Below, piece by piece: positions 3,124-53,330 of a stretch of 64,000 bases of DNA; positions within the stretch are counted from its first letter, which is position 1; every line of letters starts with the position of its first letter. Source of the DNA: a virus (Duplodnaviria > Heunggongvirae > Uroviricota > Caudoviricetes); IMG/VR virus record IMGVR_UViG_2875703104_000004; one strand, 5' to 3'. The notes under the pieces were generated by a model. The model did not search any database. It saw only the letters and a list, made by a program, of their open reading frames with translations, and had not been told where the DNA came from. The translations under genes were made by a program, and so were the position numbers.

Positions 3124-3130
3124 CACGTTA

Positions 3131-4209: not shown

Positions 4210-4215
4210 TCCGTG

Positions 4216-4246: not shown

Positions 4247-4260
4247 CACAGGGGGCTGAT

Positions 4261-4981: not shown

Positions 4982-4992
4982 AAGGGGGATGT

Positions 4993-5963: not shown

Positions 5964-5970
5964 GGACGAT

Positions 5971-6711: not shown

Positions 6712-6726
6712 TCCGGAGAGTCAGCG

Positions 6727-10054: not shown

Positions 10055-10380
10055 AAACCTTCCGCTGGAAAGTGAAACCCGGGATGGATGTGACATCGGC
10101 TCCTTCCGTCAGGGAGGTGCGCTTTGGTGATGGCTATTCCCAGCGTGCGCCTGCCGGGCTGAACGCTGACCTGAAAACGTACAGCGTGACGCTGTCTGTC
10201 TCCCGTGAGGAGGCCACGGCGCTGGAGTCGTTTCTGGCTGAGCACGGGGGCTGGAAGGCCTTTCTGTGGACGCCGCCTTATGGTTACAGGCAGATAAAGG
10301 TGACCTGCGCAAAATGGTCGTCGCGGGTCAGTATGCTGCGTGTTGAGTTCAGCGCAGAGTTTGAACAGGTGGTGAACTGA
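10051..10380 (+). CDS. M: minor tail protein M
   Basis: 109-aa ORF starting MKTFRWKVKP; overlaps the H stop. Confidence 0.85.
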   Translation: MKTFRWKVKPGMDVTSAPSVREVRFGDGYSQRAPAGLNADLKTYSVTLSVSREEATALESFLAEHGGWKAFLWTPPYGYRQIKVTCAKWSSRVSMLRVEFSAEFEQVVN

Positions 10381-20941: not shown

Positions 20942-22646
20942 AACGAACGCCTGTCCTGATTGATGTGAACGGCGTTCCGCTTCGGGAGAGCCTCAGCTAC
21001 AACGGGGGCGGCGCAGGATTTGGCGGGCAAATGGCGGAGTGGTTGCCACCGGCGCAGAGTGCCGATGCGGCCCTGCTGCCCGCGTTGCGTCTGGGGAATG
21101 CCCGGGCAGATGATCTGGTGCGCAATAACGGGATAGCGGCCAATGCGGTGGCCCTGCATAAGGATCACATTGTCGGGCATATGTTTCTTATCAGCTACCG
21201 CCCGAACTGGCGCTGGCTGGGGATGCGGGAGACCGCGACAAAAAGTTTTGTCGATGAGGTGGAGGCGGCCTGGTCAGAATACGCAGAAGGGATGTTTGGT
21301 GAGATCGACGTGGAAGGGAAACGCACGTTTACGGAATTTATCCGTGAAGGTGTGGGCGTTCATGCGTTTAACGGCGAAATCTTTGTGCAGCCGGTCTGGG
21401 ATACGGAGAGCACGCAACTGTTTCGTACGCGTTTTAAAGCCGTGAGTCCGAAACGGGTGGACACGCCAGGACACGGTATCGGGAACCGTTTTCTGCGGGC
21501 CGGTGTGGAGGTTGATCGATATGGCCGTGCCGTTGCGTACCATATCTGTGAGGATGATTTTCCTCGCTCCGGGAGTGGACGATGGGAACGGATCCCGCGT
21601 GAACTTCCCACCGGGCGTCCGGCCATGCTGCATATTTTCGAGCCGGTGGAGGACGGGCAGACCCGTGGGGCCAACCAGTTTTACAGCGTCATGGAACGGC
21701 TGAAGATGCTCGATTCCCTGCAGGCAACACAGCTTCAGTCGGCCATTGTCAAGGCGATGTATGCAGCGACAATTGAAAGTGAACTGGATACCGAAAAGGC
21801 CTTTGAATATATCGCCGGTGCGCCGCAGGGGCAGAAGGATAATCCGCTTATTAATATTCTGGAGAAGTTCTCCAGCTGGTATGACACGAATAACGTGACG
21901 CTGGGCGGTGTCAAAATTCCGCACCTTTTCCCTGGTGATGATCTGAAACTACAGACAGCGCAGGATTCAGACAATGGATTTTCTGCGCTTGAACAGGCGC
22001 TGCTGCGGTATATCGCCGCCGGTCTTGGCGTTTCCTACGAACAGTTGTCCCGTGATTACTCGAAGGTCAGTTACTCAAGTGCCCGCGCCTCCGCCAATGA
22101 GTCGTGGAACAGGCGCTGCTGCGGTATATCGCCGCCGGTCTTGGCGTTTCCTACGAACAGTTGTCCCGTGATTACTCGAAGGTCAGTTACTCAAGTGCCC
22201 GCGCCTCCGCCAATGAGTCGTGGCGCTATTTTATGGGGCGGCGAAAATTTATTGCGTCCCGGCTGGCCACGCAGATGTTTTCCTGCTGGCTGGAAGAGGC
22301 ACTTCTGCGGGGGATTATCCGTCCGCCACGGGCACGTTTTGATTTTTATCAGGCGCGTTCAGCCTGGTCACGGGCTGAGTGGATTGGTGCCGGAAGAATG
22401 GCCATTGACGGGCTCAAGGAGGTTCAGGAATCGGTGATGCGTATTGATTCCGGACTGAGCACGTATGAGAAAGAGCTGGCGCTGATGGGCGAGGATTATC
22501 AGGACATTTTCCGCCAGCAGGTCAGGGAATCTGCAGAGCGGGAAAAAGCCGGACTCTCACGTCCGGTGTGGATAGCGCAGGCGTATCAGCAGCAGATAGC
22601 GGAGAGTCGCAGGCCGGAAGAGGAGACAACACCACGTGAGACGTAA
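20938..22646 (+). pseudogene. B: portal protein (lambda gpB-like), frame broken by the same 116-bp tandem duplication
   Basis: ORF 20938..22437 plus C-terminal ORF 22104..22646 in another frame; paralogue of 1..1244. Confidence 0.8.
21991..22222. repeat. tandem direct duplication, 2 x 116 bp, same sequence as 589-820
   Basis: gaacaggcgctgctgcgg...gagtcgtg at 21991-22106 and 22107-22222. Confidence 0.9.
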
Positions 22647-24689
22647 TCTTTCACACATTATTGCAGCAGCATTCAATGAACCGCTGCTTCTGGAGCCCGC
22701 CTATGCGCGGGTTTTCTTTTGCGCGCTCGGGCGCGAGATGGGGGCAGCAAGTCTTTCGGTACCGCAACAGCAGGTACAGCTTGATGCTCCCGGGATGCTG
22801 GCTGAAACGGACGAGTACATGGCCGGAGGTAAACGACCGGCCCGTGTTTACCGGGTGGTGAACGGTATTGCGGTACTGCCGGTGACCGGCACGCTGGTGC
22901 ACCGGCTGGGGGGGATGCGGCCATTTTCCGGAATGACTGGCTATGACGGCATTGTCGCCTGTCTTCAGCAGGCAATGGCAGATAGCCAGGTGCGGGGCAT
23001 ACTGCTGGACATTGACAGTCCGGGCGGGCAGGCCGCCGGCGCGTTTGACTGCGTTGACATGATTTACCGCCTCCGGCAGCAGAAGCCGGTCTGGGCACTG
23101 TGCAATGACACGGCCTGTTCTGCAGCCATGCTGCTGGCGTCGGCCTGCTCCCGACGGCTGGTTACCCAGACATCCCGTATCGGCTCCATTGGCGTGATGA
23201 TGAGCCATGTCAGCTATGCCGGTCATCTGGCGCAGGCCGGTGTGGATATCACGCTGATTTACTCAGGGGCGCACAAGGTGGATGGCAATCAGNGGTGCAC
23301 CGGCTGGGTGGTATGCGGCCATTTTCCGGAATGACAGGCTATGACGGCATTGTCGCCTGTCTTCAGCAGGCAATGGCGGATAGCCAGGTGCGGGGCGTAC
23401 TGCTGGACATTGACAGTCCGGGCGGGCAGGCCGCCGGCGCGTTTGACTGCGCTGACATGATTTACCGCCTCCGTCAGCAGAAGCCGGTCTGGGCACTGTG
23501 CAATGACACGGCCTGTTCTGCAGCCATGCTGCTGGCGTCGGCCTGCTCCCGACGGCTGGTTACCCAGACATCCCGTATCGGCTCCATTGGCGTGATGATG
23601 AGCCATGTCAGCTATGCCGGTCATCTGGCGCAGGCCGGTGTGGATATCACGCTGATTTANNCNGGGGCGCACAAGGTGGATGGCAATCAGTTTGAAGCGT
23701 TGCCGGCAGAGGTTCGCCAGGACATGCAGCAGCGGATTGATGCGGCGCGCCGGATGTTTGCCGAAAAAGTGGCGATGTATACCGGTCTGTCTGTTGATGC
23801 CGTCACGGGAACAGAGGCTGCCGTTTTTGAAGGTCAGTCCGGCATTGAGGCCGGGCTGGCGGATGAATTAATCAATGCGTCGGATGCCATCAGTGTGATG
23901 GCCACGGCGCTGAACAGTAATGTCAGAGGAGGCACTATGCCGCAATTAACTGCAACGGAAGCCGCCGCTGCCGTTTTTGAAGGTCAGTCCGGCATTGAGG
24001 CCGGGCTGGCGGATGAATTAATCAATGCGTCGGATGCCATCAGTGTGATGGCCACGGCGCTGAACAGTAATGTCAGAGGAGGCACTATGCCGCAATTAAC
24101 TGCAACGGAAGCCGCCGTGCAGGAGAACCAGCGAGTGATGGGGATCCTGACATGCCAGGAAGCGAAAGGACGTGAACAGCTTGCCACGATGCTGGCAGGG
24201 CAACAGGGCATGAGCGTTGAACAGGCCCGGGCGATTCTGGCCGCGGCGGCACCGCAGCAGCCGGTGGCATCCGCACAGAGTGAAGCCGATCGCATTATGG
24301 CGTGTGAAGAAGCGAACGGTCGTGAACAACTGGCAGCAACGCTGGCGGCGATGCCGGAGAGGACGGTGGAAAAAGCCCGCCCGATCCTGGCTGCTTCACC
24401 GCAGGCGAATGCCGGGCCCTCACTTCGTGATCAGATCATGGCACTGGATGAGGCAAAAGGGGCTGAGGCGCAGGCTGAACAGCTGGCTGCCTGCCCGGGA
24501 ATGACTGTGGAGAGCGCCCGGGCTGTGCTGGCTGCGGGATCAGGTAAGGCAGAACCGGTCTCTGCATCCACAACCGCCCTGTTTGAACATTTCATGGCGA
24601 ACCATTCACCGGCTGCGGTCCAGGGGGGCGTGTCACAGGCGTCAGAAGACGGTGATGCGGACGTGAAAATGCTCATGGCCATGCCATGA
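22636..24689 (+). CDS. C: prohead protease / scaffold (gpC-like), second copy, with internal duplications
   Basis: Same motifs as 1234..2739; frame interrupted at n 23293 where 22896-23292 is repeated at 23294-23690; additional in-frame 150-bp tandem duplication at 23821-24120. Confidence 0.7.
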
Positions 24690-24725
24690 AGTCAGTGCTG
24701 AACATCAATACGAGGTTTTAACAAT

Positions 24726-25073
24726 ATGGTGACGAAAACCATCACTGAACAGCGTGCGGAAGTACGTATTTTTGCCGGTAATGATCCGGCTCACACCGCC
24801 ACAGGCAGCAGCGGGATTTCCTCGGCAACACCGGCACTGACACCCCTGATGCTGGATGGGGCCACCGGGAAACTGGTGGTCTGGGACGGACAGAAAGCCG
24901 GTAGTGCGGTTGGCATACTGGTACTGCCGCTTGAAGGCACAGAGGCGGTGCTGACGTATTACAAGTCGGGGACCTTTGCGACGGAGGCAATCCGCTGGCC
25001 TGAAAGTGTGGATGAACACAAAAAGGCCAACGCCTTTACCGGCAGTGCCCTGAGTCACGCGGCGCTGCCGTAA
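24726..25073 (+). CDS. D: head decoration protein (gpD-like)
   Basis: Paralogue of 2776..3123 with a few substitutions. Confidence 0.8.
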   Translation: MVTKTITEQRAEVRIFAGNDPAHTATGSSGISSATPALTPLMLDGATGKLVVWDGQKAGSAVGILVLPLEGTEAVLTYYKSGTFATEAIRWPESVDEHKKANAFTGSALSHAALP

Positions 25074-25130
25074 CACGTTATCAGGCCACCGCGTTGGCCT
25101 GACTGATTTCTTAATGAAAGGAACTGATTT

Positions 25131-26159
25131 ATGGGATTGTTTACGACCCGCCAGTTACTCGGTTATACCGAACAAAAAGTGAAATTCCGTGCGCTGTTTC
25201 TGGAGCTGTTTTTCCGCCGTACGGTGAATTTCCACACCGAAGAGGTGATGCTGGACAAAATTACCGGAAAAACGCCGGTGGCGGCCTATGTCTCCCCGAT
25301 CGTTGAAGGAAAAGTGCTTCGCCATCGCGGTGGTGAAACCCGCGTGTTACGTCCGGGCTACGTCAAGCCCAAACACGAATTTAATTACCAGCAGGCGGTT
25401 GAGCGCCTTCCTGGTGAAGATCCGGCTCAGCTGAACGACCCGGCCTACCGTCGTCTGCGTATCATTACCGATAACCTCAAACAGGAAGAGCACGCCATTG
25501 TCCAGGTGGAAGAAATGCAGGCGGTGAATGCCGTGCTGTATGGCAAATACACCATGGAAGGGGATCAGTTTGATACTGTCGAGGTGGATTTCGGGCGCTC
25601 TGAAGGAAATAACATTGAGCAGGCTGACGGTAAAAAATGGTCTGAGCAGGACCGTGATACGTTTGATCCGACGCATGATATTGACCTCTACTGCGATCAG
25701 GCCAGCGGCCTTGTGAATATCGCCATTATGGACGGTACGGTCTGGCGTCTGCTGAATGGCTTTAAGCTGTTCCGCGAAAAACTGGATACCCGTCGCGGCT
25801 CAAATTCACAACTCGAAACGGCAGTGAAAGACCTGGGGGCGGTGGTGTCCTTCAAGGGGTATTACGGCGATCTGGCCATTGTGGTGGCGAAAACGTCTTA
25901 TGTGGCAGAGGACGGTACCGAAAAACGTTATCTGCCGGAGGGCACACTGGTCCTGGGGAATACGGCAGCAGAGGGCATTCGTTGCTATGGTGCCATTCAG
26001 GATGCGCAGGCGTTGTCCGAAGGTGTGGTGGCCTCTTCCCGTTATCCGAAACACTGGCTGACCGTGGGCGATCCGGCCCGTGAATTCACCATGACGCAGT
26101 CCGCACCGCTGATGGTGCTGCCGGATCCGGATGAGTTTGTGGTGGTACAGGTGAAATAA
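25131..26159 (+). CDS. E: major capsid protein (gpE-like)
   Basis: 342-aa paralogue of 3181..4209. Confidence 0.9.
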   Translation: MGLFTTRQLLGYTEQKVKFRALFLELFFRRTVNFHTEEVMLDKITGKTPVAAYVSPIVEGKVLRHRGGETRVLRPGYVKPKHEFNYQQAVERLPGEDPAQLNDPAYRRLRIITDNLKQEEHAIVQVEEMQAVNAVLYGKYTMEGDQFDTVEVDFGRSEGNNIEQADGKKWSEQDRDTFDPTHDIDLYCDQASGLVNIAIMDGTVWRLLNGFKLFREKLDTRRGSNSQLETAVKDLGAVVSFKGYYGDLAIVVAKTSYVAEDGTEKRYLPEGTLVLGNTAAEGIRCYGAIQDAQALSEGVVASSRYPKHWLTVGDPAREFTMTQSAPLMVLPDPDEFVVVQVK

Positions 26160-26165
26160 TCCGTG

Positions 26166-26196
26166 AGCGGGGGCGAAATGCCCCCGTGTCTTTTTT
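26166..26196 (+). terminator. terminator-like hairpin downstream of E (second copy)
   Basis: Same gcggggg-cgaaatg-cccccg hairpin plus TTTTTT as at 4216-4246. Confidence 0.55.
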
Positions 26197-26210
26197 CACA
26201 GGAGGCTGAG

Positions 26211-26594
26211 ATGGCAACAAAAGAAGAAAATCTGAATCGTCTTCGTCAACTGGCTGGCCTGCTGGGGCGCGAGGCGGATATGTCGGGGAGTGCTGCGGAT
26301 ATTGCTCAACGTGTGTCTGAGTGGGAAGAGGAGCTTGCTGTTTCCCCGGAGGGCATTATGCACTCTGATGAGAGCGGGGCTGATCAAAATCACACAGACG
26401 ATGGTGAGCAGTTGCACAACACTGATGCTACGGATGATGTTAAAGCGGTCCGTGTGCGGAAATGCCTGCATGTGATGGGGTATTGCCCGGAGACAGGCCG
26501 TCCCGTTGAACTGACGTACCGGGGCATGCGTGTTATGGTGCCATCACCACTGGCGACAGCCATGATACAGCACGGAACGGCTGAGCATGCGTGA
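26211..26594 (+). CDS. FI: FI-like DNA packaging protein, diverged C-terminus
   Basis: Starts MATKEENLNRL; acidic; position between E and FII. Confidence 0.65.
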   Translation: MATKEENLNRLRQLAGLLGREADMSGSAADIAQRVSEWEEELAVSPEGIMHSDESGADQNHTDDGEQLHNTDATDDVKAVRVRKCLHVMGYCPETGRPVELTYRGMRVMVPSPLATAMIQHGTAEHA

Positions 26595-26940
26595 TTTTCA
26601 GAATGCCTTTGATGCTGCCCTTGCCGGGGTGGACAGCACGATTGTTGAAGTGATGGGGATCCGTGCGCAGTTCACCTCCGGAGCACAACGTGGCGGCGAA
26701 GTTCAGGGGGTTTTTGACGATCCGGAGTCGCTGGGTTTTGCCGGTGGCGGGGTCCGTATTGAAGGAAGCAGCCCGTCATTATTTGTGCGGACGGATACGG
26801 TGCGTGCCGTGCGGCGTGGTGACACGCTGACCATTAACGGCGAGATGTTCTGGGTGGATCGTGTTTCTCCGGATGACGGGGGAAGCTGTTATCTCTGGCT
26901 CAACCGTGGGCAACCACCCGCTGTTAACCGGCGACGATAA
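26587..26940 (+). CDS. FII: head-tail joining protein FII
   Basis: Paralogue of 4628..4981. Confidence 0.85.
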   Translation: MRDFQNAFDAALAGVDSTIVEVMGIRAQFTSGAQRGGEVQGVFDDPESLGFAGGGVRIEGSSPSLFVRTDTVRAVRRGDTLTINGEMFWVDRVSPDDGGSCYLWLNRGQPPAVNRRR

Positions 26941-26955
26941 ACGCAGGGTGAAATT

Positions 26956-27489
26956 ATGGCGATAAAAGGGCTTGATCAGGCGATTGATAATCTGAGCCGG
27001 GTTCGTAAAAACGCCATTCCGGCGGCTTCAGCAATGGCCATTAACCGCGTGGCCACAACGGCGATTAATCAGTCTTCATCACAGGTTGCCCGGGAGACAA
27101 AGGTACGCCGGAAACTGGTAAAGGAACGGTCCAGACTGAAACGGGCGACGGTCAGAAATCCGAACGCAAAAATTATCGTTAACCGCGGTGATCTTCCAGT
27201 GATTAAGCTGGGGATCAGGATGCTGGGCCGTCGTCCGAACAGCATACTTAAAGCCGGTCAGCATCGGTATCAGCGGGCATTCATTCAGCGATTAAAAAAC
27301 GGTCGCTGGCATGTCATGCAGCGTGTGGCCGGGAAAAACCGTTACCCTATTGATGTGGTGAAAATCCCGATGGCGGCCCCACTGAAACAGGCGTTTGATG
27401 AGAATGTTGACCGTATCCGGCGTGAACGCCTGCCCGGAGAACTGGCATCCGCGCTGAAACAACAACTGAGGATTGCGATAAAACGATGA
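26956..27489 (+). CDS. Z: minor tail protein Z
   Basis: Paralogue of 4993..5571. Confidence 0.85.
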   Translation: MAIKGLDQAIDNLSRVRKNAIPAASAMAINRVATTAINQSSSQVARETKVRRKLVKERSRLKRATVRNPNAKIIVNRGDLPVIKLGIRMLGRRPNSILKAGQHRYQRAFIQRLKNGRWHVMQRVAGKNRYPIDVVKIPMAAPLKQAFDENVDRIRRERLPGELASALKQQLRIAIKR

Positions 27490-27881
27490 AACACACTGAC
27501 ATTCGTGCCGCAGTGCTGGATGCACTCGAGCAGCATGAACACGGGGCGACGCTGTTTGATGGTCGCCCCGTTGTTTTTGACGAAGAGGATTTTCCTGCGA
27601 TCGCGGTTTATCTGACGGATGCAGAGTATACCGGTGAAGAGCTGGATGCAGATACCTGGCGGGCCACGCTGCATATTGAGGTGTTTTTACCGGCACAGGT
27701 ACCGGATTCAGAGCTTGATCAGTGGATGGAAAGCCGGATTTACCCGGCGATGACCGCGATCCCGGCACTGGCAGGACTGATTACCACGATGGTTACGCAG
27801 GGCTATGAGTATCGTCGTGATGACGATATGGCGTTATGGAGTTCTGCAGATCTGACTTATTCCATTACATACGAGATGTGA
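27486..27881 (+). CDS. U: minor tail protein U
   Basis: Paralogue of 5568..5963. Confidence 0.85.
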
Positions 27882-27888
27882 GGACGAT

Positions 27889-28635
27889 ATGGCAACACCA
27901 AATCCCCTTGAGCCGGTAAAAGGTGCCGGTACCACTCTGTGGGTTTACAACGGCAAGGCTGATGCTTATGCAAACCCGTTGTCAGACGATGGCTGGCAGC
28001 GACTGGCTAAGGTGAAGGATCTGACGCCGGGCGAGATGACGGCTGAACCCTACGATGATAACTACCTGGATGATGAAGACGCGGACTGGACCGCGACCGG
28101 GCAGGGACAGAAATCTGCAGGTGATACCAGTTTTACGCTGGCCTGGAAACCGGGAGAGGAAGGCCAGAAAGGGCTTATAGGCTGGTTTGAAAGCGGCGAT
28201 GTCCGGGCCTATAAAATCCGTTTTCCGAATGGCACGGTGGATGTGTTTCGTGGCTGGGTCAGCAGTATCGGTAAGGCCGTGACGGCGAAAGAAGTGATCA
28301 CCCGCACGGTGAAAGTCACTAACGTGGGTAAACCTTCTGTAGCGGAAGAACGCAGCAAAATTACGCCGGTCACTGCGATTAAGGTGACGCCGACAGGTAC
28401 GGTTGAAAAAGGGAAAACAACCACCCTGACCGTTACTGTGGAACCGGAAAATGCAACGGATAAGACATTCAGGGCGATTTCCGCCGATCCATCAAAAGCC
28501 ACCATTAGCGTGAAAGATATGACGATTACTGTGGCGGGGGTTAAGGATGGAAAAGTCAGCATCCCTGTGATTTCCGGTAATGGTCAGTTTGCTGCGGTGG
28601 CTGAAATTACCGTTAATAATGTGCCGGGTGGCTAA
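27889..28635 (+). CDS. V: major tail protein V with Ig-like C-terminal domain
   Basis: Paralogue of 5971..6711; the C-terminal Ig-like part is more diverged than the tube domain. Confidence 0.85.
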
Positions 28636-28653
28636 AGAGCTGAGAGATAAGCG

Positions 28654-29085
28654 ATGTTCCTGAAAACAGAACAATTTGAATATAACGGTGTATCCGTCAC
28701 GCTTTCTGAGCTGTCTGCGCTGCAGCGTATTGAGCATCTTGCCCTCCTGAAACGGCGGGCAGAAGAGGCTGAAGCCAGCGGCAACCTGCAGGTGAGTGTG
28801 GAAGATCTTGTCAGAACCGGCGCGTTTCTGGTGGCGATGTCCCTGTGGCATAACCATCCACAGAAAACGCAGTCACCGTCAATGAATGAGGCCGTGATGA
28901 AGATAGAGCAGGAAGTGCTCACCACCTGGCCTGCCGATGCCATTGCCCGGGCGGAAGACGTGGTGTTGTGCCTGTCCGGGATGATCGAAGCTGTTCGTCC
29001 GGATACTGATATTACTGAAGTGGCGAAAAATAACACGCTGACTGATGATGATTTTTCTGCGGGAAAGTCTTCGACGGCGAGCTGA
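28654..29085 (+). CDS. G: tail assembly chaperone G
   Basis: Paralogue of 6727..7149; GGGAAAG slippery heptamer at 29061-29067. Confidence 0.8.
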   Translation: MFLKTEQFEYNGVSVTLSELSALQRIEHLALLKRRAEEAEASGNLQVSVEDLVRTGAFLVAMSLWHNHPQKTQSPSMNEAVMKIEQEVLTTWPADAIARAEDVVLCLSGMIEAVRPDTDITEVAKNNTLTDDDFSAGKSSTAS

Positions 29086-29111
29086 ACTTTGCCCTCAGAC
29101 TGGCGCGTGAG

Positions 29112-29525
29112 ATGGGGAGACCCGACTGGCGCGCCATGCTTGCCGGGATGACATCCACCGAATATGCCGACTGGCACCGTTTTTACCGCACGCATTATTT
29201 TCAGGATACCCAGCTGGATATGCATTTTTCCGGGCTGACGTACGCTGTACTCAGCCTGTTTTTTTGCGATCCGGATATGCATCCCTCTGATTTCAGTCTG
29301 CTTGTCCCCCGGCATGAGGAAGAGCAGGTGGAGAGGCCGGATGAGGACAAAATGCTGATGCAGAAAGCGGCAGGACTTGCCGGAGGCGTCCGGTTCGGTG
29401 GGGACGGAGGGCGCGATATTTTATCGTCTGTGGATGTGGCGGATGTCATGGTGGATGATGCCGCATTAATGATGGCTTCAGCGGGGATTCCGGGAGGTGT
29501 GAGATATGTCCCAGCCGGTTGGTGA
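29112..29525 (+). CDS. T: T segment of the G-T frameshift fusion
   Basis: -1 frame relative to G, entered at the GGGAAAG at 29061-29067. Confidence 0.75.
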   Translation: MGRPDWRAMLAGMTSTEYADWHRFYRTHYFQDTQLDMHFSGLTYAVLSLFFCDPDMHPSDFSLLVPRHEEEQVERPDEDKMLMQKAAGLAGGVRFGGDGGRDILSSVDVADVMVDDAALMMASAGIPGGVRYVPAGW

Positions 29526-32217
29526 TCTTGTTATTGACCTGAGTCTGGATGCTGTCCGTTTCGATGAGCAGATGAGCCGGGTAAGGCGTCATTTTTCAGG
29601 TCTGGATACCGACGCCAGAAAAACCGCCAGTGCTGTTGAACAGGGCCTGAGCCGCCAGGCGCTGGCTGCACAAAAAGCCGGGATTTCCGTCGGGCAGTAT
29701 AAAGCGGCCATGCGAACCCTGCCCGCACAGTTTACGGATATCGCCACGCAGCTTGCCGGTGGTCAGAATCCCTGGCTGATCCTGCTGCAACAGGGCGGTC
29801 AGGTGAAGGACTCCTTCGGCGGGATGATCCCCATGTTCAGGGGGCTTGCCGGTGCGATCACCCTGCCGATGGTCGGGGTCACCTCGCTGGCGGTGGCGAC
29901 AGGTGCGCTGGTGTACGCCTGGTACCAGGGAGATTCCACGCTTTCAGCGTTTAATAAAACCCTGGTTCTTTCCGGTAATCAGTCCGGACTGACTGCCGAT
30001 CGCATGCTGACGCTCTCCAGAGCCGGACAGGCCGCAGGGCTGACGTTTAACCAGGCGAGTGAGTCACTGGCAGCCCTGGTGAATGCCGGTGTGCGTGGTG
30101 GTGAACAGTTTGATGCCATCAACCAGAGTGTCGCGCGTTTTGCTTCTGCATCCGGTGTGGAGGTGGACAAGGTTGCAGAGGCTTTCGGAAAACTGACCAC
30201 TGACCCGACGTCGGGGCTGATTGCGATGGCGAAGCAGTTCCATAACGTGACGGCGGAGCAGATTGCGTATGTTGCTCAGTTGCAGCGTTCCGGCGATGAA
30301 GCCGGGGCATTGCAGGCGGCGAACGAGGCCGCAACGAAAGGGTTTGATGACCAGACCCGACGCTTGAAAGAGAACATGGGCACGCTGGAAACCTGGGCAG
30401 ACAGGACAGCACGGGCATTCAAATCCATGTGGGATGCGGTGCTGGATATTGGTCGTCCTGATACCGCGCAGGAGATGCTGATTAAGGCAGAGGCCGCGTT
30501 TAAGAAAGCGGACGATATCTGGAATCTGCGCAAGGATGATTATTTTGTTAACGATGAAGCGCGGGCGCGTTACTGGGATGATCGTGAAAAGGCCCGTCTT
30601 GCGCTTGAAGCCGCCCGAAAGAAGGCTGAGCAGCAGAGTCAACAGGACAAAAATGCGCAGCAGCAGAGCGATACCGAAGCGTCACGGCTGAAATATACCG
30701 AAGAGGCGCAGAAGGCTTACGAACGGCTGCAGACGCCGCTGGAGAAATATACCGCCCGTCAGGAAGAACTGAACAAGGCACTGAAAGACGGGAAAATCCT
30801 GCAGGCGGATTACAACACGCTGATGGCGGCGGCGAAAAAGGATTATGAAGCGACGCTGAAAAAGCCGAAACAGTCCGGCGTGAAGGTGTCTGCGGGCGAT
30901 CGTCAGGAAGACAGTGCTCATGCTGCCCTGCTGACGCTTCAGGCNGAACTCCGGACGCTGGAGAAGCATGCCGGAGCAAATGAGAAAATCAGCCAGCAGC
31001 GCCGGGATTTGTGGAAGGCGGAGAGTCAGTTCGCGGTACTGGAGGAGGCGGCGCAACGTCGCCAGCTGTCTGCACAGGAGAAATCCCTGCTGGCGCATAA
31101 AGATGAGACGCTGGAGTACAAACGCCAGCTGGCTGCACTTGGCGACAAGGTTACGTATCAGGAGCGCCTGAACGCGCTGGCGCAGCAGGCGGATAAATTC
31201 GCACAGCAGCAACGGGCAANNNNNNNNNNNNNNNNNNNNNTGGCGCATAAAGATGAGACGCTGGAGTACAAACGCCAGCTGGCTGCACTTGGCGACAAGG
31301 TTACGTATCAGGAGCGCCTGAACGCGCTGGCGCAGCAGGCGGATAAATTCGCACAGCAGCAACGGGCAAAACGGGCCGCCATTGATGCGAAAAGCCGGGG
31401 GCTGACTGACCGGCAGGCAGAACGGGAAGCCACGGAACAGCGCCTGAAGGAACAGTATGGCGATAATCCGCTGGCGCTGAATAACGTCATGTCAGAGCAG
31501 AAAAAGACCTGGGCGGCTGAAGACCTGCTTCGCGGGAACTGGATGGCAGGCCTCAGGTCCGGCTGGAGTGAGTGGGAAGAGAGTGCCACGGACAGTATGT
31601 CGCAGGTAAAAAGTGCAGCCACGCAGACCTTTGACGGTATTGCACAGAATATGGCAGCGATGCTGACCGGCAGCGAACAGAACTGGCGTGGTTTCACCCG
31701 TTCTGTGCTGTCCATGCTGACAGAGATTTTTCTGAAGCAGGCGATGGTGGGGATTGTCGGGAGTATCGGCAGCGCTATTGGCGGGGCTGTTGGTGGCGGC
31801 GCATCCGCGTCAGGCGGTACAGCCATTCAGGCCGCTGCGGCGAAATTCCATTTTGCAACCGGAGGATTTACGGGAACCGGCGGCAAATATGAGCCAGCGG
31901 GGATTGTTCACCGTGGTGAATTTGTCTTCACGAAGGAGGCAACCAGCCGGATTGGTGTCGGCAACCTGTATCGTCTGATGCGCGGGTATGCGGAAGGTGG
32001 TTATGTCGGCGGTGCCGGAAGTCCGGCGCAGATGCGGCGGGCCGAAGGTATTAATTTTAATCAGAACAATCACGTGGTGATTCAGAACGACGGTATCAAC
32101 GGACAGGCGGGGTCGCAGCTGATGAAGGCGGTGTATGACATGGCCCGCAAGGGGGCACAGGATGAACTCCGGCTGCAGTTGCGTGATGGCGGTCTGTTAT
32201 CAGGGAGCGGTCGATGA
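29506..32217 (+). CDS. H: tail tape measure protein H (contains an N-run and a redundant block)
   Basis: 903-aa ORF paralogous to 7558..10054; N-run at 31220-31240 flanked by duplicated ~132-bp blocks. Confidence 0.8.
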   Translation: MSQPVGDLVIDLSLDAVRFDEQMSRVRRHFSGLDTDARKTASAVEQGLSRQALAAQKAGISVGQYKAAMRTLPAQFTDIATQLAGGQNPWLILLQQGGQVKDSFGGMIPMFRGLAGAITLPMVGVTSLAVATGALVYAWYQGDSTLSAFNKTLVLSGNQSGLTADRMLTLSRAGQAAGLTFNQASESLAALVNAGVRGGEQFDAINQSVARFASASGVEVDKVAEAFGKLTTDPTSGLIAMAKQFHNVTAEQIAYVAQLQRSGDEAGALQAANEAATKGFDDQTRRLKENMGTLETWADRTARAFKSMWDAVLDIGRPDTAQEMLIKAEAAFKKADDIWNLRKDDYFVNDEARARYWDDREKARLALEAARKKAEQQSQQDKNAQQQSDTEASRLKYTEEAQKAYERLQTPLEKYTARQEELNKALKDGKILQADYNTLMAAAKKDYEATLKKPKQSGVKVSAGDRQEDSAHAALLTLQXELRTLEKHAGANEKISQQRRDLWKAESQFAVLEEAAQRRQLSAQEKSLLAHKDETLEYKRQLAALGDKVTYQERLNALAQQADKFAQQQRAXXXXXXXXAHKDETLEYKRQLAALGDKVTYQERLNALAQQADKFAQQQRAKRAAIDAKSRGLTDRQAEREATEQRLKEQYGDNPLALNNVMSEQKKTWAAEDLLRGNWMAGLRSGWSEWEESATDSMSQVKSAATQTFDGIAQNMAAMLTGSEQNWRGFTRSVLSMLTEIFLKQAMVGIVGSIGSAIGGAVGGGASASGGTAIQAAAAKFHFATGGFTGTGGKYEPAGIVHRGEFVFTKEATSRIGVGNLYRLMRGYAEGGYVGGAGSPAQMRRAEGINFNQNNHVVIQNDGINGQAGSQLMKAVYDMARKGAQDELRLQLRDGGLLSGSGR

Positions 32218-32543
32218 AAACCTTTCGCTGGAAAGTGAAGCCGGATATGGAGGTGAACTCGCAGCCATCGGTGCGTGAAGTGCGTTTTGGTGACGGGTAC
32301 TCACAGCGTATGGCGGCAGGGCTGAATGCTGACCTGAAAACATACAGGGTGACGCTTTCCGTGACCCGGGAGGAGGCCCGGCATCTGGAAGCGTTCCTGG
32401 CAGAGCACGGTGGCTGGAAGGCATTTTTGTGGAAGCCACCCTATGCATACCGGCAGATAAAGGTGACCTGTGCCGGGTGGTCTGCGCGGGTCGGGATGTT
32501 GCGCGTTGAGTTCAGCGCGGAGTTTAAGCAGGTGGTGAACTGA
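32214..32543 (+). CDS. M: minor tail protein M
   Basis: Paralogue of 10051..10380. Confidence 0.85.
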   Translation: MKTFRWKVKPDMEVNSQPSVREVRFGDGYSQRMAAGLNADLKTYRVTLSVTREEARHLEAFLAEHGGWKAFLWKPPYAYRQIKVTCAGWSARVGMLRVEFSAEFKQVVN

Positions 32544-33178
32544 TGCAGGATATTCGCGAAGAAAGTCTGAACGAGTCGGTTAAGTCAGAGCAGTCACCGC
32601 GGGTGGTACTCTGGGAAATCGACCTGACGGTACAGGGTGGTGAGCGGTATTTTTTCTGTAATGAGCTGAATGAAAAAGGGGAGCCGGTCACCTGGCAGGG
32701 GCGTAAGTATGAGGCATACCCGATTGACGGCAGCGGCTTTGAGATGAACGGCCGGGGCAGCAGTGCCAGACCGTCGCTGACGGTGTCGGTCCGCCGCCGG
32801 GTGTATGCCCGTTTTCTGGATGCGGTGAATTTCGTTGCGGGCAATCCGGAGGCGGACCCGGAGCAGGAGCTGAGTGACCGCTGGGTGGTGGAGCAGATGT
32901 CGCAGCTGACAGCCATGACGGCCTCGTTTGTGCTGGCTACACCGACCGAGACGGACGGGGCGCTGTTTCCCGGTCGCATCATGCTGGCGAACACCTGTAT
33001 GTGGGATTACCGGGGAGATGAATGCGGGTATAACGGTCCTGCGGTGGCGGATGAGTTCGATAAACCCACCACGGATATCCGTAAGGACAGATGCAGCAAG
33101 TGCATGCGCGGGTGTGAACTGCGCAGGAATGTCGGCAATTTTGGCGGTTTCCTTTCCATTAATAAACTTTCGCAGTAA
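32543..33178 (+). CDS. L: minor tail protein L (21 codons shorter than the other copies)
   Basis: 211-aa ORF; lacks the segment NLFGLVTGMAEDLQSLVGATV present in the other L copies. Confidence 0.75.
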   Translation: MQDIREESLNESVKSEQSPRVVLWEIDLTVQGGERYFFCNELNEKGEPVTWQGRKYEAYPIDGSGFEMNGRGSSARPSLTVSVRRRVYARFLDAVNFVAGNPEADPEQELSDRWVVEQMSQLTAMTASFVLATPTETDGALFPGRIMLANTCMWDYRGDECGYNGPAVADEFDKPTTDIRKDRCSKCMRGCELRRNVGNFGGFLSINKLSQ

Positions 33179-33620: not shown

Positions 33621-33696
33621 GCCTGCGCAAGGGACCATCGGTGTGTGCCGGTGGTCTTTATATTGTTGTGAGCTTCCGGATAACGGGAGACGGGGT

Positions 33697-34062
33697 ATGT
33701 ACCAGATGGAAAAAATCACAACAGGTGTGTCATACACCACGTCAGCGGTGGGAACGGGCTACTGGTTCCTGCAGTTGCTGGACAGGGTTTCCCCGTCTCA
33801 GTGGGCGGCAATAGGCGTGCTGGGGAGTCTGCTGTTTGNNNNNNNNNNNNNNNNNNNNNAAAAAATCACAACAGGTGTGTCATACACCACGTCAGCGGTG
33901 GGAACGGGCTACTGGTTCCTGCAGTTGCTGGACAGGGTTTCCCCGTCTCAGTGGGCGGCAATAGGCGTGCTGGGGAGTCTGCTGTTTGGGCTGCTGACAT
34001 ATCTGACTAACCTGTATTTCAAAATCAGAGAGGACCGGCGTAAGGCGGCGCGGGGAGAGTAA
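33697..34062 (+). CDS. S: class II holin / pinholin (phage 21 S-like); ORF inflated by a redundant block around an N-run
   Basis: [26 protein letters not shown]...[40 protein letters not shown]: two TM segments, charged C-terminus, dual-start M..M; 33711-33838 repeated after the N-run 33839-33859. Confidence 0.75.
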
Positions 34063-34066: not shown

Positions 34067-34417
34067 ATGAAGAAAAAATACGAACTGGTTGTTAAAGGGA
34101 TAAATAATTACCCGGATAAGATTACTGTTACTGTGGCACTGGAAGTTGGTGGGTATCCGTCACTGTTGTTGCCAGATGTGGCGATTAGTCTTGACCGTAC
34201 TGAAGGTGCCACGCTGGAGTTTTACGAAGCTGAGGCGAAAAAGCAGGCGAAGCAGTTTTTCATGGATGTTGCTGCCGGGTTATGTGAAGGGAACGAACCG
34301 TTGCCGGAAAAGCGCCCCGTGATTTTAGAGGCGCAGAATGTATGGATAACCTACAAAGGAAATCTACCGGGAAGAATTACTGGTTCTCTGAAGACTCCAC
34401 CGGAATCACAACCTTAA
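34067..34417 (+). CDS. hypothetical protein between holin and endolysin
   Basis: 116-aa ORF starting 5 bp after the holin stop; no signal peptide or TM segment; no family recognised. Confidence 0.5.
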   Translation: MKKKYELVVKGINNYPDKITVTVALEVGGYPSLLLPDVAISLDRTEGATLEFYEAEAKKQAKQFFMDVAAGLCEGNEPLPEKRPVILEAQNVWITYKGNLPGRITGSLKTPPESQP

Positions 34418-34480: not shown

Positions 34481-35014
34481 ATGAACGCAAAAATCAGATA
34501 CGGCCTGTCGGCTGCCGTTCTGGCGCTGATTGCCGCTGGTGCGCCTGCGCCTGACATTCTCGACCAGTTTCTGGATGAAAAGGAAGGTAACCACACCACG
34601 GCATACCGTGATGGTGCGGGGATCTGGACCATCTGCCGTGGTGCCATCATGGTGGATGGTAAACCTGTTGTTCCAGGCATGAAGTTGTCGAAGGCAAAAT
34701 GCGACCGGGTTAACGCCATTGAGCGTGATAAGGCGCTGGCATGGGTGGAGAAAAACATCAGAGTGCCACTGACCGAACCCCAGAAAGCGGGGATCGCGTC
34801 ATTCTGTCCGTACAACATTGGTCCCGGTAAGTGTTTCCCGTCGACGTTTTACAGACGAATTAATGCAGGTGATCGAAAAGGTGCCTGCGAAGCGATTCGC
34901 TGGTGGATTAAGGACGGTGGCAGAGACTGCCGTATTCGTTCAAACAACTGTTACGGTCAGGTATCCCGTCGCGACCAGGAGAGTGCGCTGGCGTGCTGGG
35001 GAATTGACAGATAA
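34481..35014 (+). CDS. R: SAR endolysin (T4-lysozyme-like, GH24)
   Basis: N-terminal weakly hydrophobic Ala/Gly-rich segment YGLSAAVLALIAAGAPAP; catalytic E-x8-D-x5-T in EGNHTTAYRDGAGIWT. Confidence 0.8.
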   Translation: MNAKIRYGLSAAVLALIAAGAPAPDILDQFLDEKEGNHTTAYRDGAGIWTICRGAIMVDGKPVVPGMKLSKAKCDRVNAIERDKALAWVEKNIRVPLTEPQKAGIASFCPYNIGPGKCFPSTFYRRINAGDRKGACEAIRWWIKDGGRDCRIRSNNCYGQVSRRDQESALACWGIDR

Positions 35015-35105
35015 GCAGAATATTTTGCTGAAAAATGCGGTTTGCTCACACGGACGGATAACACGAAATCCTGCGAACTGACAAAAACTAAGTGAATAAA
35101 AGTAA

Positions 35106-35140
35106 AAACCCCGTTTGTTGGCTGCAAGCGGGGTTTTGTG
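35106..35140 (+). terminator. terminator-like hairpin downstream of the endolysin
   Basis: aaccccg...cggggtt stem followed by TTTTGTGTTT. Confidence 0.4.
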
Positions 35141-35173
35141 TTTCCTGACTCTGGAAAAGTCAAAGGAGAAAGT

Positions 35174-35311
35174 GTGTTTGATTTTAGCAAACTGATTCGG
35201 GAGATTCGAGTGATGGCTGAAAAATTATCCACCTGGAAGTTCATTCTTATCTGGCTGGTGTTTGTGATTATGGCCTCCGGTTATTTCATCGGTCAGATAC
35301 GCTGGTGGTGA
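35174..35311 (+). CDS. hypothetical 45-aa single-pass membrane peptide
   Basis: GTG start 5 nt after [50 protein letters not shown]; stop 1 nt before the Rz ATG. Confidence 0.4.
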
Positions 35312-35312
35312 A

Positions 35313-35807
35313 ATGAACCGCGTACTGTGCGTGGTCATCATTGCCCTGCTGGTGGCCTGTGGTGCGCTTAGTCTGGGGCTGAATCATTACCGTGATAACG
35401 CCATAACCTACAAAGCCCAGCGCGACAAAAATGTCAGAGAACTGAAGCTGGCGAACGCGGCAATTACTGACATGCAGATGCGTCAGCGTGATGTTGCTGC
35501 GCTCGATGCAAAATACTCGAGGGAATTAGCCGATGCGAGAGCTGAAAATGAAACTCTTCGCGCTGACGTTGCCGCTGGTCGTAAGCGCCTGCGTATCAAC
35601 GCCACCTGTCCAGGTCCCGTGCGTGAAGCCACCGGTACCGCCCGCGTGGATAATGCAACCGGCCCCCAACTGGCAGACACCGCTGAACGGGATTATTTCA
35701 TCCTCAGAGAACGGCTGATGACAATGCAGAAGCAGCTGGAAGGGGCGCAGGAATATATCCGCACTCAGTGCACTAAGCTGGCTTTTTATTATCCGGAGGA
35801 TACATGA
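35313..35807 (+). CDS. Rz: i-spanin Rz
   Basis: N-terminal TM segment then [42 protein letters not shown], coiled-coil rich, as in lambda Rz. Confidence 0.85.
35533..35718 (+). CDS. Rz1: o-spanin Rz1, embedded in the +1 frame of Rz
   Basis: [15 protein letters not shown] lipobox, then Pro-rich [27 protein letters not shown]. Confidence 0.8.
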
Positions 35808-36028
35808 AGAAATTACGGGTAACCGTAGAACCTTTTCAGGGAACAATTCCGTTCCGTATTTTGCAGCGTGGTCGTGTTCTTGTTGAAGGTTCGTTCAGTG
35901 GTAAATGTACGCAATTACACTCCCGGACCTTTCAGGTGAATGCCACGAATGAAGAGCTAACCGTGGAGTGTACGATGAATGCCGCTAAATGCCGCATGGT
36001 ATCCGCTGCATTACAGCCAGTGTGTTGA
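35804..36028 (+). CDS. hypothetical protein overlapping the Rz stop
   Basis: 74-aa ORF whose ATG overlaps the Rz stop (ATGA); no signal peptide; no family recognised. Confidence 0.35.
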
Positions 36029-36226
36029 GCGACCTTATTATCCATGCGCGGTATTGTCGCCGTATTCCTGCATTAACAGAGACCGCAGCCCGACAGGGAG
36101 ACTCCTCTGCGCGAGTGTGCGGGGATAATCAAAAACGATACACACCGGGGTTTACCGCGTTAACGGAGCGCGGCGTTGTCCCCTCATAGTCGCCTGTCCG
36201 GTGCGATGGTGGAAGAAACCGAACGT

Positions 36227-36427
36227 TCATTTCTCGTTATTTGTCATGCTGGTCGGGCGCAGATGCGTTGCATCTGTTGCCAGCCTTCTCCTGCAGGCTT
36301 CAATAACCCACGCTGAAAAGTTACCGGACCCTTTATGCTCAAGGGCTATGTTGATTTGTTCAATTATGTGATTGGGGAAACGGATATTGCGGGTTGTGGT
36401 TCTGCGGGTCCGGTTTTTCGATGACAT
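36227..36427 (-). CDS. small basic protein, possible ribbon-helix-helix DNA-binding protein
   Basis: 66-aa ORF MSSKNRTRRTTTRNIRFPNHIIEQINIALEHKGSGNFSAWVIEACRRRL with AGGA RBS 7 nt upstream; divergent from the HNH gene. Confidence 0.35.
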   Translation of the reverse strand: MSSKNRTRRTTTRNIRFPNHIIEQINIALEHKGSGNFSAWVIEACRRRLATDATHLRPTSMTNNEK

Positions 36428-36468
36428 ATTTATTTCCTTTACTGATTGCCATATGACGGGGATTTTAC

Positions 36469-36834
36469 ATGGCTGAGCTTCGTACACTCCAGAGCAGAAT
36501 CAAAACACTGAATACCCGACGGGTGAATATTCTGAAGGGGGAACAGCGTCGTGTCAGTGGCAGTGCACGTGTTTCCCTCAAGCGTCATATCTGGCTGAGG
36601 GACGCCGGGCAGTGCTGTATCTGTGGTCGTGTGGTTGACCTCTGTGACAGTGAACTCGATCACCGAATTGCACTTCAGTTCGGTGGTGGTAATGAGGAGA
36701 CGAATCTCTGGACGCTCTGTACCGAATGCCATCGACAAAAGTCTGCTCGTGAAGCGGCGGGTGGTATGCCGGACCCGACGCTGCCGGAGGTGTCCGGAGG
36801 TAGTGACAGAGCGGACGACATCATCGGACTGTAA
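36469..36834 (+). CDS. HNH endonuclease, packaging-associated type
   Basis: CCICG..(n)..DHRIALQFGG..NLWTLCTECHRQK is an HNH zinc-finger nuclease motif; located immediately upstream of the terminase genes. Confidence 0.8.
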   Translation: MAELRTLQSRIKTLNTRRVNILKGEQRRVSGSARVSLKRHIWLRDAGQCCICGRVVDLCDSELDHRIALQFGGGNEETNLWTLCTECHRQKSAREAAGGMPDPTLPEVSGGSDRADDIIGL

Positions 36835-36926
36835 CCCGACCCGGGGGGGGTATCATCCGGCGTAAAAAACGATCGCTTTGGACACCGCGCCCCCTCTCAC
36901 GCAGAGAAAAAATTCCCGTTTCAGGG

Positions 36927-37052
36927 CAGTTAACATGTTAACTGGCTGCCCGGGCATTTTTGCGGTTTTTATCTTTATTATTCAGTTTGTTGTGCGGAAA
37001 AAATGTTAACAGGCTTTTTCAGCAAATGTTAACCAGGCAGCAGTTAACATTT
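36927..37052. promoter_or_regulatory. cluster of GTTAAC-containing repeats (candidate cos / terminase recognition region)
   Basis: 18-bp palindrome cagttaacatgttaactg at 36927-36944, aaatgttaac at about 37001 and 37024, inverted copy gttaacattt at about 37043. Confidence 0.45.
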
Positions 37053-37125
37053 GCGGCATGAGACGCCGGGGAAAAATGGGCTGAACCATACCCGGCTGAG
37101 TGCGTTCTGGACCCGGGAGGAGGCT

Positions 37126-50553: not shown

Positions 50554-51408
50554 TGCAGGATATTCACGAAGAAAGTCTGAACGAGTCGGTTAAATCAGAG
50601 CAGTCACCGCGGGTGGTACTCTGGGAAATCGACCTGACGGTACAGGGCGGTGAGCGGTATTTTTTCTGTAATGAGCTGAATGAAAAAGGGGAGCCGGTCA
50701 CCTGGCAGGGGCGTAAGTATGAGGCATACCCGATTGACGGCAGCGGCTTTGAGATGAACGGCCGGGGCAGCAGTGCCAGACCGTCGCTGACGGTGTCCAA
50801 TCNGTGGTGAGCGGTATTTTTTCTGTAATGAGCTGAATGAAAAAGGGGAGCCGGTCACCTGGCAGGGGCGTAAGTATGAGGCATACCCGATTGACGGCAG
50901 CGGCTTTGAGATGAACGGCCGGGGCAGCAGTGCCAGACCGTCGCTGACGGTGTCCAATCTGTTCGGTCTGGTCACCGGGATGGCGGAAGACCTGCAGAGT
51001 CTGGTGGGGGCCACGGTGGTCCGCCGCCGGGTGTATGCCCGTTTTCTGGATGCGGTGAATTTCGTTGCGGGCAATCCGGAGGCGGACCCGGAGCAGGAGC
51101 TGAGTGACCGCTGGGTGGTGGAGCAGATGTCGCAGCTGACAGCCATGACGGCCTCGTTTGTGCTGGCTACACCGACCGAGACGGACGGGGCGCTGTTTCC
51201 CGGTCGCATCATGCTGGCGAACACCTGTATGTGGGATTACCGGGGAGATGAATGCGGGTATAACGGTCCTGCGGTGGCGGATGAGTTCGATAAACCCACC
51301 ACGGATATCCGTAAGGACAGATGCAGCAAGTGCATGCGCGGGTGTGAACTGCGCAGGAATGTCGGCAATTTTGGCGGTTTCCTTTCCATTAATAAACTTT
51401 CGCAGTAA
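50553..51408 (+). CDS. L: minor tail protein L (contains a redundant block around n 50803)
   Basis: L N-terminus to about codon 84, n at 50803, then L restarts from about codon 33 and runs to the LSINKLSQ stop at 51408. Confidence 0.7.
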
Positions 51409-52576
51409 ATCCCGGTTTATGACACAGACTGAATCAGCGATTCTGGCGCATGCCCGGCGGTGTGTGCCTGCGGAGTCGTGCGGCTTAGTGGTGAGAACGC
51501 CGGAGGGGGAGCGGTATATCCCTTGTGTGAATATCTNCCAATCTGTTCGGTCTGGTCACCGGGATGGCGGAAGACCTGCAGAGTCTGGTGGGGGCCACGG
51601 TGGTCCGCCGCCGGGTGTATGCCCGTTTTCTGGATGCGGTGAATTTCGTTGCGGGCAATCCGGAGGCGGACCCGGAGCAGGAGCTGAGTGACCGCTGGGT
51701 GGTGGAGCAGATGTCGCAGCTGACAGCCATGACGGCCTCGTTTGTGCTGGCCACACCGACCGAGACGGACGGGGCGCTGTTTCCCGGTCGTATCATGCTG
51801 GCGAACACCTGTATGTGGACCTACCGCTCTGATGAGTGTGGTTACACGGGCGGGGCAGTGGCGGATGAGTTCGATAAACCCACCACGGATATCCGTAAGG
51901 ACAGATGCAGCAAGTGCATGCGCGGGTGTGAACTGCGCAGGAATGTCGGCAATTTTGGCGGTTTCCTTTCCATTAATAAACTTTCGCAGTAAATCCCGGT
52001 TTATGACACAGACTGAATCAGCGATTCTGGCGCATGCCCGGCGGTGTGTGCCTGCGGAGTCGTGCGGCTTNCTTTGAGATGAACGGCCGGGGCAGCAGTG
52101 CCAGACCGTCGCTGACGGTGTCCAATCTGTTCGGTCTGGTCACCGGGATGGCGGAAGACCTGCAGAGTCTGGTGGGGGCCACGGTGGTCCGCCGCCGGGT
52201 GTATGCCCGTTTTCTGGATGCGGTGAATTTCGTTGCGGGCAATCCGGAGGCGGACCCGGAGCAGGAGCTGAGTGACCGCTGGGTGGTGGAGCAGATGTCG
52301 CAGCTGACAGCCATGACGGCCTCGTTTGTGCTGGCTACACCGACCGAGACGGACGGGGCGCTGTTTCCCGGTCGCATCATGCTGGCGAACACCTGTATGT
52401 GGGATTACCGGGGAGATGAATGCGGGTATAACGGTCCTGCGGTGGCGGATGAGTTCGATAAACCCACCACGGATATCCGTAAGGACAGATGCAGCAAGTG
52501 CATGCGCGGGTGTGAACTGCGCAGGAATGTCGGCAATTTTGGCGGTTTCCTTTCCATTAATAAACTTTCGCAGTAA
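51409..52576. repeat. two redundant 584-bp blocks, each K 5' end + n + L 3' part
   Basis: L stop codons at 51408, 51992 and 52576 (period 584 bp); n at 51539 and 52071 marks the jump from K sequence back into L. Confidence 0.8.
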
Positions 52577-52586
52577 ATCCCGGTTT

Positions 52587-53330
52587 ATGACACAGACTGA
52601 ATCAGCGATTCTGGCGCATGCCCGGCGGTGTGTGCCTGCGGAGTCGTGCGGCTTAGTGGTGAGAACGCCGGAGGGGGAGCGGTATATCCCTTGTGTGAAT
52701 ATCTCTGCAGAGCCGGAGGCGTATTTTCGTATTGCACCGGAAGACTGGCTGCGGGCAGAGATGCAGGGGGAGATTGTGGCACTGGTCCACAGTCATCCCG
52801 GTGGGCTGCCCTGGCTGAGCGAGGCTGACCGGCGGCTGCAGATAAAAAGCGCACTGCCCTGGTGGCTGGTCTGCCGGGGTGACATTCACAAATTCCGCTG
52901 CGTGCCGCACCTGACGGGACGGCGCTTTGAGCACGGGGTGACGGACTGTTACACCCTGTTCCGGGATGCATACCATCTGGCGGGGACTGAAATGCCGGAT
53001 TTTCATCGCGAGGATGACTGGTGGCGCAACGGTCAGAACCTTTACCTGGACAATATGGCGGTCACCGGCTTTTACCGGGTGCCCCTGTCCTCTGCACAGG
53101 CGGGCGATATTCTGCTGTGCTGCTTTGGTGCTTCGGTACCGAACCATGCCGCCATTTACTGCGGCAACGGTGAGCTGCTTCACCATCTGCCTGAACAACT
53201 GAGTAAACGGGAGAGGTATTCCGAAAAATGGCAACGACGAACGCATTCTGTCTGGCGTCACCGCCACTGGCACGCATCTGCCTTCACGGGGATTTGCAAC
53301 GATTTGGCCGCCGCCTCAGCCTGTATGTGA
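52587..53330 (+). CDS. K: tail assembly protein K
   Basis: Starts MTQTESAILAHARRC..; HSHPGG motif; paralogue of 11084..11827. Confidence 0.85.
   Translation: MTQTESAILAHARRCVPAESCGLVVRTPEGERYIPCVNISAEPEAYFRIAPEDWLRAEMQGEIVALVHSHPGGLPWLSEADRRLQIKSALPWWLVCRGDIHKFRCVPHLTGRRFEHGVTDCYTLFRDAYHLAGTEMPDFHREDDWWRNGQNLYLDNMAVTGFYRVPLSSAQAGDILLCCFGASVPNHAAIYCGNGELLHHLPEQLSKRERYSEKWQRRTHSVWRHRHWHASAFTGICNDLAAASACM

Follow-up and report, generated by a model that had tools for sequence, protein, structure and literature searches.

A widespread 74-codon gene in the spanin–cos interval of lambdoid prophages, read as probable late-operon cargo

Lambdoid phages carry accessory genes at recognised places in their late regions. 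The interval between Rz and cos is one of them, and in lambda it holds bor. The Bor protein is a lipoprotein; its gene lies on the opposite strand, has its own promoter and is transcribed in lysogens. The other such classic site is found between Q and the holin. Small proteins encoded with lysis genes are also known. RIII of phage T4 is a small soluble cytoplasmic lysis regulator that acts on its holin, and the DUF1327/YdfR proteins are small, uncharacterised and inserted in lambdoid lysis cassettes.

The open reading frame (ORF) described here lies in a stretch of viral DNA of 64,000 nucleotides (the window). Like bor, the genes of Qin and the cargo of Stx phages (Rha, TonB_C), it occupies the Rz–cos slot, shows presence/absence polymorphism and has a lower GC content than its neighbours. 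Unlike bor, it runs in the direction of the late genes and overlaps the stop codon of Rz; it has no detectable promoter or terminator and specifies a product predicted to be soluble. By analogy its product may be likened to T4 RIII: both would be small, soluble proteins of the cytoplasm, encoded alongside lysis genes and produced late. It differs from RIII in the absence of sequence or fold similarity, in having no constant holin partner and in being dispensable, on present comparisons, with the same lysis cassette. The closest match in position is gp60 of phage mEp237, which also stands directly after an Rz-like spanin gene, near the right genome end. The ORF belongs to PHROG 2571, a small protein family of lambdoid prophages in the Enterobacterales, which contains, besides the short stand-alone form found in the window, a 280-aa form with extra N- and C-terminal regions. 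No structural feature sets the window copy apart within this family, and membership says nothing on mechanism. The resemblance to DUF1327/YdfR is one of size and setting, with a C-terminal module in common between the latter and one relative of the ORF (P0052). Homology was rejected, as an hhalign comparison of the N-terminal domains gave a probability of 0.3% and the two are unrelated.

The features on which the argument depends are the following.

34067..34417: DUF1327/YdfR gene, between holin and endolysin
34481..35014: phage lysozyme (endolysin)
35105..35137, plus strand: terminator-like hairpin, a 14-pair stem followed by a T-run, between endolysin and Rz
35313..35807, plus strand: Rz i-spanin gene, 164 aa (PF03245, E 2.3e-49; PHROG 13, E 3.6e-75)
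35533..35718, plus strand: Rz1 o-spanin frame inside Rz, lipobox LVVSAC read from the translation
35795–35800, plus strand: Shine-Dalgarno sequence GGAGGA of the ORF, within the final Rz codons, read from the sequence
35804..36028, plus strand: the 74-aa ORF, a PHROG 2571 member identical to RefSeq WP_000736383.1
36029..36226, no strand assigned: spacer from the ORF to a convergent DUF3950/YnfO-like gene, with no terminator-like site

A preliminary description of the locus had noted a start codon overlapping the Rz stop, a length of 74 residues with four cysteines, the lack of a signal peptide and a site downstream of the lysis cassette. All four hold. The ATG at 35804-35806 has TG in common with the TGA at 35805-35807 (ATGA), and translation of 35804..36028 gives both the length and the cysteines. 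The protein contains neither an N-terminal hydrophobic segment nor a lipobox. The S21-type holin, the DUF1327 gene, the lysozyme and Rz/Rz1 all lie upstream. Downstream follow the convergent DUF3950/YnfO-like gene, an HNH endonuclease and the small and large subunits of an HK97-type terminase. Since the lysis genes lie on one side and the HNH and HK97-type terminase genes on the other, the region is the right end of a lambdoid late region.

Some details of the surroundings are recorded here for their own sake. A 32-aa hydrophobic ORF (35213-35311) that matches 6632 (E 5.5e-20) stops a single base short of the Rz ATG; E2348/69 has it annotated as a "hypothetical protein", and it may encode a small membrane protein belonging to the lysis cassette. 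At 36227-36834 the DUF3950/YnfO-like gene (minus strand) is convergent with the late operon and adjoins the HNH gene, and late transcription must cross the DUF3950 gene antisense. The HNH gene just upstream of terS/terL is the HK97-type HNH-terminase arrangement. The window itself seems to have been put together, as a scaffold or composite, from several pieces of lambdoid prophage. Its two lambda-like head-tail modules (1-10621 and 21403-32784) are 82-99% identical, near-identical tandem blocks of ~584 bp with a single N between them occupy 50649-52704, and gaps of 21 N stand at 31220-31240 and 33839-33859. Holin sequence is duplicated on either side of the second of these gaps, which makes an assembly artefact of the 139-aa 'holin' ORF at 33643-34062. 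The segment 34000-50000, which holds the ORF, is free of N.

Short ORFs arise readily by chance. Within 6 kb there are 81 ORFs of at least 30 aa, and the length of this one is no better than chance. One alternative to a gene is a chance ORF, or the remnant of a longer gene of the 280-aa PhiR46_1 type, which would persist only because of the youth of the prophage DNA around it; in keeping with a remnant, residues 1-73 cover only positions 100-172 of the 291-position PHROG 2571 profile (unknown function; E 2.7e-28). Conservation is the reason to count the ORF as real, length alone being uninformative. The preliminary description would have given it up for lack of conservation, and the homology search found the opposite. 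The 225-bp sequence is present in 1180 of the 5426 complete E. coli genomes, in up to six copies per genome, and is annotated "hypothetical protein" every time. The exact window protein is recorded on at least 1000 contigs, and an identical protein is carried by E2348/69 (WP_000736383.1, E2348C_RS07535). The ORF is thus already known, as a RefSeq-annotated "hypothetical protein" grouped in PHROG 2571.

A profile search of 1.84 billion cluster representatives returned 47 proteins at E <= 1e-3, from which four long repeat proteins with apparently spurious multi-repeat matches (P0060, P0080, P0082, P0087) were left out. The convincing relatives are mostly stand-alone proteins of 72-84 aa, 25-40% identical to the window protein, and the same PHROG is matched by 31 of 31 diverse relatives. 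Those whose source is named come from Salmonella, Citrobacter, Yokenella and Xenorhabdus prophages; one Klebsiella locus was found separately, with a narrower alignment against one-genome-per-species contigs. Against a remnant, the stand-alone form of 72-82 aa, beginning with MK at the same alignment column, is the commonest and spans six genera. The family conserves M1, K2, V6, F17, Q21, G33, K34, Y43 and V45. Its signature (MK.L.VT ... F.V.Q.G..L ... SGK ... Y.V) is recovered in the window protein at M1, K2, V6, F17, Q21, G33, K34 and V45, with Y43 replaced by F. Among isolated phages, members occur in mEp237 (gp60, YP_007111433.1), in Stx2c and Stx2a converting phages and in H-19B. Pfam and NCBIfam hold no match for the protein or for longer relatives; the PADLOC defence HMMs likewise gave none, at E <= 0.01, and no mention of the protein was found in the literature.

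The pattern of substitution bears on the same question. Across 19 distinct 225-nt alleles the variable sites at the three codon positions number 27, 23 and 36, third positions being the most variable. Divergent pairs of alleles give dN/dS values of 0.23-0.5 (Nei-Gojobori). Against the Salmonella allele there is a significant excess of synonymous and shortfall of non-synonymous change (binomial p = 7e-4). By these sequence comparisons the divergent alleles are under purifying selection. Between the window type and the O55:H7/Stx2c type, which are the two alleles common in E. coli, there are 16-18 non-synonymous and 2-5 synonymous changes. The resulting dN/dS of ~1.2-2.6, at or above one as would be seen in a non-gene, is indistinguishable from neutrality (p = 0.39); because of it, constraint may be weak in part of the PHROG 2571 family. 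Every homologue inspected keeps a Shine-Dalgarno sequence ahead of it, the remaining frames of the 225-bp window sequence are all interrupted by stops, and the confident compact fold described below likewise speaks for a protein. The reading as a chance frame or remnant is already largely refuted and keeps next to no probability; the 74 codons are almost certainly a real protein-coding gene.

The protein is small, with a GRAVY of -0.06 and a pI of 9.5. Among 10-residue segments starting within the first 16 residues its highest Kyte-Doolittle mean is 0.77; over 15 residues the highest mean is 0.8. Spanin features were sought as well, and the protein has no N-terminal transmembrane domain and no lipoprotein signal. 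The structure prediction proposed in the preliminary description was carried out with AlphaFold2 on a 21-sequence alignment. It returned, with good confidence (mean pLDDT 89.6, pTM 0.75), a compact all-beta domain that has six strands and a single short helix and in which residues 2-8 are predicted as a beta strand. The best reading of the model is a soluble cytoplasmic all-beta domain of ~75 residues, soluble because it lacks a hydrophobic segment. A Foldseek search with the model gave nothing significant (best E 0.24 in the PDB and 0.054 in BFVD), and a PDB profile search stayed at chance level (best E 0.13). The lectin, CBM, FlgD and C1q sandwiches among the Foldseek matches were set aside as generic beta-sandwich similarity (E >= 0.05, TM ~0.4-0.6), which is non-significant.

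The four cysteines, at positions 35, 56, 63 and 74 (the last in the C-terminal LQPVC), raise the question of a small protein that depends on them, by binding metal or by forming disulfides. Many close relatives also have C35 and C38 as a CxxC motif (CTEC). Among the sequences of the E. coli/Salmonella clade all keep C35 and 20 of 21 keep C56, whereas C63 and C74 are often replaced. C38, and with it the CxxC of some relatives, is absent from the window protein. Conserved cysteine pairs like those of zinc-ribbon/CxxC small proteins were sought and not found: the wider family alignment has no conserved cysteine column, and most members have T, A, S or V at position 35. The four cysteines carry no family-wide signal in these alignments, and a cysteine-dependent function is highly improbable.

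The domain does not always stand alone. In the 280-aa PhiR46_1 form a helical N-terminal region and a C-terminal region are added to it, and other relatives carry a PHROG 11851 N-terminus or a PHROG 13555 C-terminus. In P0052 the PHROG 2571 domain is joined to the C-terminal module of the long DUF1327/YdfR proteins. The single-sequence AlphaFold model of the 280-aa relative P0063 (pLDDT 42.9) was not used.

The position of family members is constant and their neighbours are not. Of 11 distinct contexts, 10 place the member downstream of the spanin genes and upstream of terS/cos, and in eight of the 11 it is the first gene after the spanin. The single exception stands between the Q region and the holin. 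The adjoining spanin genes are PF03245 Rz, DUF2514 or a gene without Pfam match, the holins are S21-type, HP1-type or holin_8/holin_3_7, and the endolysins are lysozymes or GH19 enzymes. The packaging modules nearby are equally varied (HK97-type TerS/TerL with HNH, lambda Nu1/A, DUF1441 with GpA, Terminase_4). The distance from spanin to member is -4 to +28 nt in several independent lineages; gaps in other lineages measure 27, 28, 107 and 443 nt.

The preliminary description had pointed to this part of the right arm as a place for accessory cargo. Presence and absence among related phages and the other genes found in the slot bear this out. Among phage records, 26 encode the protein and 430 match a 1.2-kb query running from Rz to the start of HNH. 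Phage Lys8385Vzw, whose Rz is homologous and whose DUF3950 and HNH genes are the same, has Rha and TonB_C genes between Rz and the other two, and in the Qin prophage of K-12 the slot is filled by cspI, ynfQ/R/N, gnsB and ydfO. In two loci (L085, L088) ~60 nt from the 3' end of a remnant Rz accompany the ORF, putting a recombination boundary within Rz. Since close relatives lack it, the gene would be dispensable for lysis and packaging on this comparative evidence.

An ORF of ~68 aa that matches PHROG 4280 lies directly 3' of the member in four loci (L083 4265-4471, L092 5305-5511, L096 5308-5511, L085 4182-4397). It bears the motif GWV.GW.VVR..PWHL.GVYAT...RYGSH.LGSDDFIS, and its hosts are Salmonella, Yokenella, Citrobacter and E. 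coli prophages with GpA-type large terminases (Nu1 or DUF1441 small subunit). As an obligate partner of the family it was rejected, being absent from the window.

The same arrangement can be read in another way, and this is the main rival to cargo. The protein would then be an accessory to lysis, acting in the cytoplasm as a regulator or helper, produced along with the spanins and tuning the timing of lysis or the final disruption of the envelope. A tight and repeated adjacency to unrelated spanin families would be the signature of such a factor too, and it is seen beside three kinds of spanin gene, in first place after the spanin in most contexts and with gaps down to -4, 24, 27 and 28 nt. 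In the window the gene is moreover co-oriented with Rz and probably translationally coupled to it. On the other hand, any gene in the spanin–cos slot is expected to be 'first after the spanin'. Spanins work in the periplasm, yet this protein carries no signal that would target it there or to the membrane. It co-occurs with unrelated holins, endolysins and spanins, which leaves no constant partner, and phages with near-identical Rz do without it. The member upstream of the holin lies away from the spanins altogether. A role in lysis is accordingly held to be unlikely, and cargo remains the preferred reading of the position.

How the overlap with Rz came about can be followed by comparison. In the Salmonella homologue Rz ends at a TAG, and the ORF begins 24 nt later behind its own GGGGGA box. 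The ancestral TAG has become CTG in the window (codon 156, 35778-35780) and CCG in the O55:H7/Stx2c allele. Rz thereby gains nine C-terminal codons (LAFYYPEDT) past its conserved C-terminal cysteine and reaches the TGA at the ATG of the ORF. Because the ancestral Rz stop was lost in the E. coli lineage, the sequences indicate that the ATGA overlap is derived and specific to that lineage. Homologues in other lineages are preceded by purine-rich boxes of their own (GGGGGA, GGAGAA, GGAGGA, GGAGGAG); as the ORF always has its own Shine-Dalgarno sequence, the overlap would add coupling and not form the basis of expression. Translation most probably starts from that sequence, and in this E. coli lineage it may also be coupled to the termination of Rz.

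The position of the ORF also suits co-expression with the spanins, as the preliminary description had claimed. It has the same orientation as Rz and its own strong Shine-Dalgarno sequence in the Rz 3' end. The plus strand shows no sigma-70-like promoter from the endolysin to terS, and relatives keep the spacing of -4 to +28 nt. The promoter scan (34900-37100) was a simple consensus match that could miss a promoter active in lysogens; the same scan found no terminator-like site after the ORF. The strong terminator-like hairpin at 35105-35137 lies inside the lysis cassette and would separate R from Rz unless transcription is antiterminated. Judged from the sequence, it may confine the expression of Rz and the ORF to antiterminated late transcription. 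With no promoter-like site on the plus strand between R and terS and this hairpin upstream of Rz, transcription of the ORF is most likely limited to the Q-antiterminated late transcript, which it would share with the spanins.

These features bear directly on whether the gene is a classical moron, that is, expressed from the repressed prophage and conferring a fitness trait on the lysogen in the manner of lambda bor. The slot is a known cargo site, from the established case of bor and from the Qin genes observed in K-12, and the presence/absence pattern among closely related phages fits. The base composition also fits, at 47.1% GC for the ORF against 54.5-57.9% for its neighbours (Rz 54.5%, HNH 55.5%, TerL 57.9%). 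An own promoter and terminator were sought by the consensus scan of 34900-37100 and not found. The spacer 36029..36226 has no notable structure, with no Rfam match and a folding no better than that of shuffled sequence (z = 0.17). The start that overlaps the Rz stop builds the gene into the late operon, transcription lacking antitermination would end at the terminator-like hairpin ahead of Rz, and the predicted product is cytoplasmic, unlike the surface proteins Bor and Lom. Expression as a lysogenic moron is therefore regarded as very unlikely.

Late-operon cargo of another kind accounts better for these observations. The ORF would ride behind the lysis genes, at the operon's 3' end, where variable cargo lies between the spanin genes and cos/terminase. 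Its product is probably a free-standing binding module whose target lies outside the phage's own lysis and packaging proteins. The constant slot with inconstant neighbours, the dispensability, the low GC content, the modular fusions and the fast turnover of the surface all argue for this reading. Because the gene appears dispensable for lysis and packaging, the module would most likely bind a protein of the host or of a competitor and have no part in envelope disruption or packaging. A further reading is a conflict factor expressed late and built on a small beta fold not described before. Such a factor would explain why close alleles diverge quickly in amino-acid sequence, why the gene behaves as cargo, why its domain is fused to varying extensions and why it has no structural neighbour. 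It could be a counter-defence protein against systems triggered by terminase, portal or capsid, or an inter-phage exclusion factor; either form is considered distinctly unlikely.

As it stands the gene matters little, being already a "hypothetical protein" in about one fifth of complete E. coli genomes. Its value is that of a well-defined target, a compact and confidently predicted beta domain with neither a structural nor a functional neighbour. Prophages of pathogenic E. coli, among them Stx2c and Stx2a phages and those of EPEC E2348/69 and O55:H7, carry it at high frequency. Modularity is also seen in the DUF1327/YdfR proteins of the lysis cassettes compared here: in nine loci (L011, L018, L038, L042, L046, L047, L066, L072, L084) the same N-terminal domain of ~113 aa is followed by C-terminal extensions that bring the proteins to 162-329 aa.
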